Virus record (IMG/VR): IMGVR_UViG_2537562173_000012
Reading direction: 5' to 3' (one strand)
DNA: 12,009 nt
Source: a virus
Lineage: Duplodnaviria > Heunggongvirae > Uroviricota > Caudoviricetes
Positions within the stretch are counted from its first letter, which is position 1. Every line of letters starts with the position of its first letter. A program made the position numbers and the translations under genes. The notes beneath the pieces are model-generated. The model was given only the letters and a program-made list of their open reading frames with translations, made no database searches and had not been told where the DNA came from. Of this stretch, positions 3,136-5,592 are shown piece after piece.

Positions 3136-3145
3136 TTCTTAATAT
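3113..3145 (+). promoter_or_regulatory. PRE-like CII-dependent promoter (TTGC-N6-TTGC) directed toward cI
   Basis: TTGC at 3113-3116 and 3123-3126 separated by 6 nt, inside the first codons of cII. A TAATAT -10-like hexamer follows 17 nt after the inter-repeat hexamer. This is the lambda PRE layout. Confidence 0.5.
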
Positions 3146-3220
3146 TTCCAATAGTGAATAGTTAGTTGAAAGGTATGCGTGGAAACGCATATGGCCTTAG
3201 TTGGTCAGATATATTGGGAC

Positions 3221-3235
3221 TCGCTTTGTCAGCGA
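3221..3235 (-). promoter_or_regulatory. nutR boxB hairpin (GACAA loop)
   Basis: Minus-strand RNA reads UCGCU GACAA AGCGA (5-bp stem, 5-nt loop), between cro and cII. It has the same loop and the same CUACG 5' flank as the hairpin downstream of PL. Confidence 0.6.
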
Positions 3236-3273
3236 CGTAGGACGAATGTCCATTGTGAAAATAGCGGTGTTAC

Positions 3274-3474
3274 TTATGCAGTTGTTTTTTTGTTACTTGG
3301 GAAGGGCTTTACCTCTTCCGCATAAACGCTTCCATCAGCGTTTATAGTTAAAAAAATCTTTCGGCCTGCATGAATGGCCTTGTTGATCGCGCTTTGATAT
3401 ACGCCGAGATCTTTAGCTGTCTTGGTTTGCCCAAAGCGCATTGCATAATCTTTCAGGGTTATGCGTTGTTCCAT
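3274..3474 (-). CDS. cro: Cro repressor (lambda type)
   Basis: 66-aa translation [66 protein letters not shown] matches lambda Cro as I recall it. AGGAGG SD precedes the ATG. Confidence 0.95.
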
Positions 3475-3498
3475 ACAACCTCCTTAGTACATGCAACC

Positions 3499-3567
3499 AT
3501 TATCACCGCCAGAGGTAAAATAGTCAACACGCACGGTGTTAGATATTTATCCCTTGCGGTGATAGAT
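3499..3567. promoter_or_regulatory. OR1-OR2-OR3 operators with divergent PR (minus) and PRM (plus)
   Basis: OR1 TATCACCGCCAGAGGTA at 3501-3517, OR2 3525-3541 and OR3 3548-3564 are the lambda 17-bp operator sequences. PR -10 GATAAT and -35 TTGACT read on the minus strand (plus coordinates 3499-3504 and 3522-3527). PRM -35 TAGATA (3540-3545) and -10 TAGATT (3562-3567) give a leaderless cI mRNA starting at the ATG at 3575. Confidence 0.9.
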
Positions 3568-3574
3568 TTAACGT

Positions 3575-4288
3575 ATGAGCGCAAAAAAGAAACCATTAAC
3601 ACAAGAGCAGCTTGAGGACGCACGTCGCCTTAAAGCTATTTATGAAAAAAAGAAAAATGAACTTGGCTTATCCCAGGAATCTGTCGCAGACAAGATGGGG
3701 ATGGGACAGTCAGGCGTTGGTGCTTTATTTAATGGCATCAATGCATTAAATGCTTATAACGCCGCATTGCTTGCAAAAATTCTCAACGTTAGCGTTGAAG
3801 AATTTAGCCCTTCAATCGCCAGAGAAATCTACGAGATGTATGAAGCGGTTAGTATGCAGCCGTCACTTAGAAGTGAGTATGAGTACCCTGTTTTTTCTCA
3901 TGTTCAGGCCGGGATGTTCTCGCCTGAGCTTAGAACCTTTACCAAAGGTGATGCGGAGAGATGGGTAAGCACAACCAAAAAAGCCAGTGATTCTGCATTC
4001 TGGCTTGAGGTTGAAGGTAATTCCATGACCGCGCCAACAGGATCCAAACCTAGTTTTCCTGACGGGATGTTAATTCTGGTTGACCCTGAGCAGGCTGTTG
4101 AGCCAGGTGATTTCTGCATAGCCAGACTTGGGGGTGATGAGTTTACCTTCAAGAAACTGATCAGGGATAGCGGTCAGGTGTTTTTACAACCACTAAACCC
4201 ACAGTACCCAATGATCCCATGCAATGAGAGTTGTTCCGTTGTGGGGAAAGTTATCGCCAGCCAGTGGCCTGAAGAGACGTTTGGATAA
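3575..4288 (+). CDS. cI: CI repressor (lambda type, LexA-like S24 peptidase C-terminal domain)
   Basis: 237-aa translation is essentially lambda CI as I recall it, with at most one or two substitutions, including the N-terminal HTH domain and C-terminal autocleavage domain. Confidence 0.95.
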
Positions 4289-4295
4289 CACGTAA

Positions 4296-4733
4296 ATGAT
4301 TAAAGAACGTATTTCTTATATCATTCCGATTGCGATGGATGAAGGCAACCCAGTAACTCCAGTTCTTATCTATGAAATGGATAAAGACTCCCATGAAGTG
4401 GATCTATCATTTGGCGCTTTTTTTATCGGCCTTAAGGCTACAAAAAAATATTCCATAGGCATTGAGGTTTTCAATGCTCAAGAAATACCGATACCAATTG
4501 ACACAAAACTGTACTCCAACCATAAGTTTTTTACGGTAGCAGAAGCCAACGATGGAGAAACCATCGTATCAACTTCTATGAGAATTAACTTCCCAAGGGT
4601 GAAAATTATCAAGCCTGGGATATTCGAAGTTAGAGCATCACTGGTTAATCCTGATAAAGGCGAAGTAATTGATGTAAAAAGTTCGTTTTTTGACGTGAAG
4701 ATAACAGGATCAGTTCGCGATGAGTTTAGATAA
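4296..4733 (+). CDS. Hypothetical protein, first gene of a cassette in the rexA/rexB position
   Basis: 145-aa ORF starting 8 nt after the cI stop on the same strand, with no obvious SD (possible coupling to cI). It does not resemble RexA, no catalytic motif was recognised, and the stretch looks more A+T-rich than its neighbours by eye. Confidence 0.6.
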   Translation: MIKERISYIIPIAMDEGNPVTPVLIYEMDKDSHEVDLSFGAFFIGLKATKKYSIGIEVFNAQEIPIPIDTKLYSNHKFFTVAEANDGETIVSTSMRINFPRVKIIKPGIFEVRASLVNPDKGEVIDVKSSFFDVKITGSVRDEFR

Positions 4734-4839
4734 CAAGGTTGCTCAGCTTCGTCCAAATCAAAACATATCTCGCCCAATTGGACACTATTCCACTGATGAT
4801 GCATACTCACGGCATGGTGGAGGAAACGGCGGAGGTAAC

Positions 4840-5091
4840 ATGCTTGAGGCTAGAGTTGCAAAGCTAGAGTCTGATGTTGAATACATCAAGCGCGATCTCG
4901 CTGAAGTAAAGTCAGATATAAAATCTGTAGATTCTCGTCTGTCAGGTATTGAGACAAGCATTAGCTCAGCAAAAATCACCATCAAGGCATCTGCGGTCGT
5001 TGTCAGTTTCGTGTTCGCATTTTGCGCCTACATTTTTGGAAGTTATGTTTCCAAAATCCTTGATGCCTTAAACGGACTCGTTCTTAAGTAA
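4840..5091 (+). CDS. Hypothetical small membrane protein (coiled-coil plus C-terminal TM helix), second gene of the cassette
   Basis: GGAGG SD at 4831-4835 before the ATG at 4840 gives an 83-aa product. The same frame is open from ATG 4720, giving the 123-aa form in the ORF track. Heptad-like LEARVAKLESDVEYIKRDLAEVKSDIKSV is followed by a hydrophobic stretch AVVVSFVFAFCAYIFGSYV. A terminator follows directly. Confidence 0.55.
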   Translation: MLEARVAKLESDVEYIKRDLAEVKSDIKSVDSRLSGIETSISSAKITIKASAVVVSFVFAFCAYIFGSYVSKILDALNGLVLK

Positions 5092-5098
5092 CACACAA

Positions 5099-5124
5099 CC
5101 CGGCCTCAGCGCCGGGTTTTCTTT
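5099..5124 (+). terminator. Intrinsic terminator ending the cI-cassette transcript
   Basis: CCCGGC (5099-5104) pairs with GCCGGG (5111-5116) around a 6-nt loop, followed by TTTTCTTT. Confidence 0.7.
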
Positions 5125-5281
5125 ACCTCACGATCCCCTTCACCCAATAACACATAACCAATTGTATTTATTTGAAAATTAATAGATACAACTCACTAAA
5201 CATCGCAATTCAGATCTCTCGATCACCTCCCAAGCCACACACCCCTGCAAAAAAATAAATCTATATAAAAAACATACAGAT

Positions 5282-5344
5282 AACCATCTGCGGTGATAAA
5301 TTATCTCTGGCGGTGTTGACATAAATACCACTGGCGGTGATACT
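5282..5344 (+). promoter_or_regulatory. OL3-OL2-OL1 operators and the PL promoter
   Basis: OL3 at 5282-5298, OL2 at 5302-5318 and OL1 at 5326-5342 match the lambda operator consensus. PL -35 TTGACA (5316-5321) and -10 GATACT (5339-5344) are 17 bp apart. Confidence 0.9.
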
Positions 5345-5412
5345 AAACACATCAGCAGGACGCACTACTCACCAGTGCGGTGAATATACAACGATTCAAG
5401 CAAGAATCTACG

Positions 5413-5427
5413 GCGCTGACAAAGCGC
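5413..5427 (+). promoter_or_regulatory. nutL boxB hairpin (GACAA loop, P22 type)
   Basis: GCGCT GACAA AGCGC is a perfect 5-bp stem with a 5-nt loop, about 70 nt downstream of PL. It matches the P22-type boxB I recall and differs from the lambda GAAGA/GAAAA loop. Confidence 0.6.
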
Positions 5428-5592
5428 AATAACCAAAGTGAACTTTGGGGTGTGGTGAAGGATTCATGGACGGGAATATGTCGCACGTAAAGCGGCGAGG
5501 CCTGCGGGACTATTGCCGAATTGAAGTAGGCCGAAACAGGTCGAAATGGGTCTCCCACCTACCACACCACCAAAGTTCATCAGGAGGTCTAT

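Follow-up and report, generated by a model that had tools for sequence, protein, structure and literature searches.

Lambda-type immunity mosaics were reportedly established for phage HK97 in 2000 and for wild phages of lambda immunity in 2007. HK97 (NC_002167; Juhala et al. 2000, J Mol Biol 299:27) joins lambda-type cI, cro, OR and OL to HK97-type nutR, cII, nutL and N, and the GenBank records of phages mEp234 (EF120460) and HK106 (EF120461), deposited with Degnan et al. 2007, Mol Microbiol 64:232, annotate oR1-3, oL1-3, pR, pRM, pL, Timm, pRE with its CII site, and the boxA and boxB elements of nutL and nutR. Passages in later papers describe the interval between cI and N as a recognised hotspot of mosaic diversity, after Degnan 2007 (PMC8585504; PMC7067206), and cI and cro have been described as repeatedly co-transferred (PMC9836094). 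Here we analyse a 12,009-nucleotide (nt) stretch of viral DNA (IMG/VR record IMGVR_UViG_2537562173_000012, Caudoviricetes; hereafter the window), which comes from a lambdoid prophage of Escherichia coli, covers its early region and runs opposite to the lambda map, and we concentrate on its immunity region at positions 3136-5592. The mosaic that we find there is real and very probably an ordinary one, in which lambda immunity specificity is combined with HK97-type flanks, as in a known class of wild phages.

In a local blastn comparison, lambda (NC_001416) matches this region only at 3260-4284 (98.0% identity, 20 mismatches, ungapped) and at 5097-5374 (89.6%). These two blocks hold the following features.

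3274-3474, minus strand: cro (Pfam Cro, E 6e-35)
3499-3568: OR1-OR2-OR3 region, 99-100% identical to lambda, with divergent PR and PRM; PRM placed within it by homology to EF120460
3527-3499, minus strand: PR (promoter scan, 10/12)
3501-3517: OR1, exact lambda 17-mer
3525-3541: OR2, exact lambda 17-mer
3548-3564: OR3, exact lambda 17-mer
3575-4288, plus strand: cI repressor gene (Pfam HTH_3 and Peptidase_S24)
5097-5118, plus strand: t_imm, the intrinsic terminator closing the cI operon (terminator scan; fold -14.6 kcal/mol, z -3.9)
5282-5344: OL3-OL2-OL1 region with PL, exact lambda operators
5282-5298: OL3, exact lambda 17-mer
5302-5318: OL2, exact lambda 17-mer
5316-5344, plus strand: PL, TTGACA-17-GATACT (promoter scan)
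5326-5342: OL1, exact lambda 17-mer

All six operators keep the lambda spacing, and PR and PL are also identical to those of lambda. Cro is identical to lambda Cro, its gene carrying two synonymous nt differences, and CI matches lambda CI at 235 of 237 residues (99%). Fifteen of the 17 differing cI codons are synonymous; the other two give T3A and K71N, both shared with HK97, whose cI is 100% identical at the nt level over 3601-4200. The t_imm hairpin is identical to that of lambda, and the homologous site is annotated as 'Timm' in EF120460. The original prediction had described cI, cro and both operator sets as lambda-identical or nearly so, and these comparisons bear it out. CI, Cro and the six operators would all place the prophage in the lambda immunity group, and homoimmunity with lambda is predicted. 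Lambda features absent from the window are the GAAAA/GAAGA boxB loops, lambda-type N and CII, the O plus P pair, Red (exo/bet/gam) and rexAB.

Non-lambda sequence bounds this module tightly, as had been foreseen. The right outer junction falls at about 3260, 14 nt beyond the cro stop codon and within the nutR boxA. The left outer junction falls at about 5374-5378, which is 32-36 nt past OL1, 35-39 nt before the nutL boxB and about 25 nt into the PL transcript, whose start we place at about 5351 by homology to EF120460; lambda identity spans OL1 and the PL -10 element up to there. Both positions lie in the intervals predicted for them (between cro and nutR, from 3274 to 3235, and between OL and nutL), and the suggestion that breakpoints might coincide with short shared elements held for the right junction, inside boxA. 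Two inner junctions complete the picture: lambda identity breaks off in the final sense codon of cI (4284) and restarts where the t_imm hairpin begins (5097). All four breakpoints sit at functional boundaries, namely the nutR boxA, the cI stop codon, t_imm and the start of the PL transcript. Because CI and Cro cannot be separated from their operators and N must match both nut sites, the permissible crossover intervals are short; crossovers are viable only between the cro stop and boxA, between the PL start and boxB, at the cI stop and at t_imm, and these are the places of the breaks. Functional interdependence of this kind would have CI, Cro and the six operators travel as a unit, and would require N to fit both nutL and nutR, which bracket the immunity module, giving tight borders.

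The sequence immediately outside the junctions is of HK97 type and contains the following features.

2839-3135, minus strand: cII, HK97 type (Pfam Phage_CII, E 5e-34; 97-99% nt identical to HK97)
3113-3126, plus strand: CII site of PRE, TTGC-N6-TTGC (sequence read directly; EF120460 marks the homologous position as the CII site of pRE)
3221-3235, minus strand: nutR boxB, UCGCU-GACAA-AGCGA, 5-bp stem and pentaloop (-6.6 kcal/mol; annotated as nutR boxB in EF120460)
3258-3266, minus strand: nutR boxA, CGCTATTTT (the homologous site is annotated as boxA in EF120460)
5413-5427, plus strand: nutL boxB, GCGCU-GACAA-AGCGC, 5-bp stem and pentaloop (-8.5 kcal/mol)
5440-5578, plus strand: long-range stem in the N leader, arms CUUUGGGGUGUG and CACACCACCAAAG (fold -57.9 kcal/mol, z -4.4)
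5593-5976, plus strand: N antiterminator gene, HK97 type (Pfam N_peptide, E 2.8e-15)

Both boxB hairpins, at nutL and at nutR, fold with the GACAA loop that had been proposed for them. The nutL boxB (GCGCTGACAAAGCGC) is identical to the nutL boxB of P22, and the nutR stem differs. At the boxA of nutR, where the right junction falls, the window reads CGCTATTTT and lambda reads CGCTCTTAC. Both arms of the N-leader stem (CUUUGGGGUGUG and CACACCACCAAAG) are conserved in lambda in the alignment, and we take this stem to be a candidate equivalent of lambda's RNase III site. CII is 38% identical to lambda CII, in keeping with the expectation that it would be diverged, and the CII site of PRE belongs to the flank module yet drives the lambda-type cI.

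The earlier description of N as P22-like stands for parts of the protein. BLASTP against P22 gp24 aligns only the last 30 amino acids (aa; 67% identity, E 3e-10), and a global alignment finds 39 of 100 positions identical, among them F-GN--RR-ER within the arginine-rich motif. It is in this motif and in the C-terminal 30 residues that N resembles gp24; the protein overall is HK97 N, with 124 of 127 residues identical. The gene after N, an open reading frame (ORF) at 5910-6371 (PHROG 7374), is 100% identical over 5950-6333 to a hypothetical gene beside N in HK629, and 99.7% identical to hkaQ of HK620 and HK630; HK97, CUS-3 and E2348/69 lack it. A breakpoint lies in the last 30 or so nt of N, at about 5943-5976.

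The wider claim that the module is embedded in a P22-like early region also needs dividing. It fails for the immediate flanks, which are of HK97 type and show no nt match to P22 (NC_002371) between 2628 and 5900 apart from boxB. It holds for the distal flanks, which are 99-100% identical to CUS-3 (CP000711), a P22-like coliphage, over 1-2205, 6625-9134, 9277-9938 and 10378-11789. Likeness to P22 itself comprises the identical nutL boxB, the similar arginine-rich motif and C terminus of N, the origin-binding part of gene 18 (90-96%), the gene 12 helicase (60-99%) and erf (about 80%), but the immunity regions of P22 and CUS-3 (c2/cro and operators) are unrelated to this one.

Several known phages and prophages carry the same arrangement. 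HK97 matches the window on both sides of each outer junction (1-4288 at 94.7%; 5101-5974 at 96.5%) and shares the breakpoints; it differs in having gp48/gp49 in the rex slot, a t_imm hairpin of its own where the window has that of lambda, and a central part of O that is 59-67% identical at 2205-2600. Phage mEp234 likewise crosses both junctions, and it and HK106 share 98.1% identity with the window over 2628-4288 and 96.9% over 5096-5974, with the annotated positions in EF120460 and EF120461 mapping one-to-one onto the window; these phages differ in their cargo (hicA-hicB plus a hypothetical gene) and in having replication genes of another type. Closest over the immunity region is the prophage of enteropathogenic E. 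coli O127:H6 E2348/69 (NC_011601, about 2.619-2.622 Mb), which matches 3136-5592 in a single piece at 99.8% (5 mismatches in 2,457 nt), including the same cargo (WP_000588958, WP_000050903), and whose similarity to the window extends over 2850-5975; it differs in the N-terminal part of O, in having a Rad52-type recombinase with a single-stranded DNA-binding protein and HNH in place of Erf, and in its other early-left genes. When we searched 5,426 complete E. coli genomes with a 106-nt probe for the right junction and a 131-nt probe for the left, each was intact in 111 of them (about 2%).

These matches bear on the age of the junctions. Had the two immunity junctions formed by recent, lineage-specific recombination in this genome, the window would be a fresh hybrid, and one observation favors that account: among phage records and complete E. 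coli genomes, none reaches 80% coverage of the 12-kb window, so that no single donor was found for it. The window is, however, unique through other breakpoints (at about 2205, 2628, 2850, 5975, 6625, 9134/9277 and 9938/10378), HK97, mEp234, HK106 and the E2348/69 prophage carry both immunity junctions in identical form, and the 111 complete genomes have them intact. A recent origin of the two immunity junctions is refuted by the identical junctions in other phages and prophages, and we regard the fresh-hybrid account as extremely improbable. The junctions are inherited from a widespread lineage rather than created in this genome, and their arrangement has already been published, as the records EF120460 and EF120461 and the papers citing Degnan et al. 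2007 attest. Uniform similarity to a single phage, the outcome that the original prediction had said would make this an ordinary member of a known lineage, is thus found or not according to scale: the whole window lacks a donor covering 80% of it, but the immunity region matches one prophage throughout and HK97 runs across both of its junctions. Overall, the window is a unique combination of known segments, which is normal for lambdoid prophages.

A different objection is that no exchange took place, the lambda-like block being a slowly evolving core under purifying selection whose flanks diverged by ordinary descent. Constraint is certainly strong, with 2 of the 17 differing cI codons changing the protein and Cro unchanged. 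Descent under selection alone nevertheless cannot explain the pattern, because synonymous sites are also conserved at about 98% (about 2% nt divergence) while at each border the sequences cease to be alignable within about 15 nt. The same module also occurs with lambda-type nut sites and N in HK544 and with HK97-type ones here, so that it is joined to at least two types of flank, and the cargo joined to it takes at least five different forms: rexAB in lambda, gp48/49 in HK97, hicAB in mEp234, HK544's own genes, and the two genes described below in the window. Moreover, the flanks are 97-100% identical to phages with unrelated immunity regions, such as CUS-3. We give this account almost no credence and keep to modular exchange of a lambda-type immunity region between HK97-type flanks.

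Some details weigh against treating this prophage as a straightforward lambda-homoimmune member of the HK97-type class. T3A falls in the operator-contacting N-terminal arm of CI, which also carries K71N, and homoimmunity is itself a prediction from sequence. The nutR boxA (CGCTATTTT) departs from that of HK97 (CGCTCTTTT) by a single C-to-A change, which is also present in E2348/69. On the left, a search of the stretch from PL to N, which includes 5345-5412 ahead of the nutL boxB, found no canonical boxA (CGCTCTTTA, up to two mismatches allowed); in the mEp234 record EF120460 the depositors mark CGCACTACT (window 5361-5369) as a putative boxA. Finally, the prophage may be defective, as its abc2 gene is truncated by a fragment of aroG.

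Between the inner junctions, the rex slot (4289-5096) carries different cargo, as had been noticed, in the form of two non-rex ORFs.

4296-4733, plus strand: cargo gene A, 145 aa, no signal peptide, all-beta sandwich
4720-5091, plus strand: cargo gene B, 123 aa, with a glycine-rich N terminus, a coiled coil and a C-terminal hydrophobic anchor (PHROG 6136)

No similarity to RexA or RexB was detected: neither protein has a Pfam or PADLOC match, and lambda has no nt match in 4289-5096. Gene A belongs to PHROG 5893, category 'unknown function', and its homologues form about 20 clusters, all from Enterobacterales. Its AlphaFold model (predicted local distance difference test, pLDDT, 86.6) is a confident beta-sandwich of eight strands, with only generic fold matches in the PDB at a template modelling (TM) score of about 0.5 (RhoGDI, MD-1/MD-2 of the ML family, carbohydrate-binding modules (CBM) and GH2 Ig domains). 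Gene B scores 19.3 bits against Pfam XhlA (PF10779), under the gathering cut-off of 34.7, and close homologues carry the NCBI name 'hemolysin XhlA'. Most of its 73 homologue clusters share just the C-terminal two thirds, that is, the coiled coil and the anchor. The N-terminal 40 or so residues of gene B homologues vary with the type of upstream partner gene.

The layout is nonetheless like that of rexAB, with two genes between cI and t_imm, one encoding a soluble beta-sandwich (from the model) and the other a protein with a C-terminal hydrophobic segment. Gene A begins 7 nt after the cI stop codon, the two genes overlap by 14 nt, and both are predicted to be co-transcribed with cI from PRM. 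Among phage records, the cargo genes find matches only in Salmonella phages of the epsilon34 group and in Enterobacter phages, at 71-78% nt identity. Genes 45/44 of epsilon34 (EU570103), with 77.6% nt identity over 543 nt, are homologous to gene A and to the beginning of gene B and lie directly downstream of the repressor gene, although that repressor has another specificity and the C-terminal part of gene B has no nt match; the describers of epsilon34 called genes 45/44 rexA/rexB-like by position, with no database matches (PMC2629481). Enterobacter prophages show the two-gene layout directly after a different S24 repressor, with a 141-aa partner 23% identical to gene A and a 116-aa homologue of gene B. 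In the otherwise near-identical prophage of E. coli CAVP773, an IS66-family element (tnpA, tnpB, tnpC) lies between the cargo end and the OL/PL region.

It is possible, though on balance doubtful, that genes A and B constitute a prophage-expressed exclusion or abortive-infection system like RexA/RexB, in which a beta-sandwich cytoplasmic sensor would act via a membrane-anchored, XhlA-like effector. Their rexAB-like position and operon layout, from the spacing behind cI to the t_imm end, argue for such a role, as do the recurrence of the pair behind unrelated S24 repressors, in Enterobacter prophages and in epsilon34, and the record of this slot as a home for defense genes, for example rexAB and bstA (PMC8585504). 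Against it stand the lack of sequence similarity to RexA, RexB or any PADLOC model, the generic fold matches of gene A and the sub-threshold XhlA similarity of gene B; a literature search for XhlA-like prophage defense or for the function of the cargo genes found nothing relevant. The pair could equally serve in lysogenic conversion, have a membrane or lysis-related function, or be a toxin-antitoxin-like pair as in mEp234. A more general form of the exclusion proposal, to which we hold just as tentatively, is that genes A and B might be a PRM-co-transcribed two-component exclusion or abortive-infection cassette, with gene B as the tail-anchored membrane protein, its variable N terminus matching its partner, that moves between the repressor stop codon and t_imm across immunity types (imm-lambda E. 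coli prophages, epsilon34 and Enterobacter prophages).

The replication and recombination genes of the prophage are also not those of lambda, which has no match in these regions; in place of lambda P and exo/bet/gam, a DnaB-type helicase and an ERF protein are present.

455-1831, minus strand: replicative helicase, DnaB type, at the position of lambda P (Pfam DnaB_C, E 9.6e-78; DnaB, E 3.9e-13)
1828-2658, minus strand: O-like replication initiator (Pfam Phage_rep_O, E 1.1e-36)
8213-8848, plus strand: Erf-type single-strand annealing protein (Pfam ERF, E 2.5e-44; 96-100% nt identical to erf of HK97 and CUS-3)

The domain matches agree with the earlier proposal of an O-like initiator with a DnaB-type helicase, and of Erf rather than Red. 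The helicase gene is 97-100% nt identical to the 'replicative DNA helicase' genes of HK97 and CUS-3. The initiator is itself a mosaic: its C-terminal part (1828-2205) is 97-100% identical to CUS-3/HK97-like sequence, and its N-terminal, origin-binding part (2205-2628) is 90-96% identical to P22 gene 18, just 59-67% identical to HK97 (over 2205-2600) and without a match in CUS-3. The O gene holds a second module junction, at a domain boundary inside the gene.

The remainder of the window holds three further features.

2645-2806, minus strand: small HK97 gp53-like ORF
after N: early-left genes, including kil
right end of the window: TorI-like excisionase

By exact protein matches, the window spans positions 3-12011 of contig AEYT01000032.1 from an E. 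coli draft assembly (GCA_000233675.2). The contig begins within the prophage, and the late genes lie outside the view. Beyond the window it carries host genes that match, in Pfam, LysR (dsdC-like), GntP-permease, MFS/EmrY-like, EmrK-like and response-regulator families, a neighborhood that, going by K-12 gene order, is presumably the dsdC-emrKY-evgA region. The CUS-3 record stops at an annotated attR core corresponding to about 11789, and the window runs on; it contains a 66-aa gene in 11774-12009 whose E2348/69 counterpart is annotated as 'response regulator inhibitor TorI', with host genes (LysR, GntP permease) coming next. The true end of the prophage probably lies beyond the window.

The most unusual feature of the window lies outside the immunity region. 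Between an HK97 gp40-like gene and abc2, 173 nt of phage DNA have given way to a 147-nt fragment from the interior of aroG, the host gene for DAHP synthase; this fragment, at 9135-9281, matches the E. coli chromosomal gene at 100% identity. Its junctions show microhomologies of 2 nt (GC) and 5 nt (CGTAT). The fragment is fused in frame to the upstream phage ORF (8848-9297; Pfam DAHP_synth_1, E 2.7e-14), and through it the anti-RecBCD gene abc2 loses its first 20 or so codons. The phage/aroG junction was absent from the 5,426 complete E. coli genomes, IMG/VR, GTDB representative genomes and JGI metagenomes, and the fusion protein is recorded in one contig only, the source contig. The replacement may be a natural capture by illegitimate recombination or an assembly artefact.

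Taken together, the lambda-type parts and their HK97-type surroundings suggest a switch that would work as in lambda. CI would bind OR1-3 and OL1-3, repressing PR and PL and autoregulating PRM, and Cro would compete with CI at the same sites. The PRM transcript would carry cI and the two cargo genes and stop at t_imm, a layout like that of lambda cI-rexA-rexB. The HK97-type N, with its gp24-resembling arginine-rich motif, would read the GACAA-loop boxB at nutL and nutR, and the HK97-type CII would activate the flank-encoded PRE, from which transcription would read into the lambda-type cI. Replication would proceed with the O-like initiator and the DnaB-type helicase, and recombination with Erf.

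For annotation, the value of these comparisons is that a prophage of this kind can be called, provisionally, as lambda-homoimmune and as carrying N and nut sites of HK97 type. The cargo of the rex slot is of interest in its own right, as the slot has already yielded RexAB and BstA. Above all, the locus is a clean textbook case of modular exchange in lambdoid phages, with its breakpoints pinned to functional boundaries.

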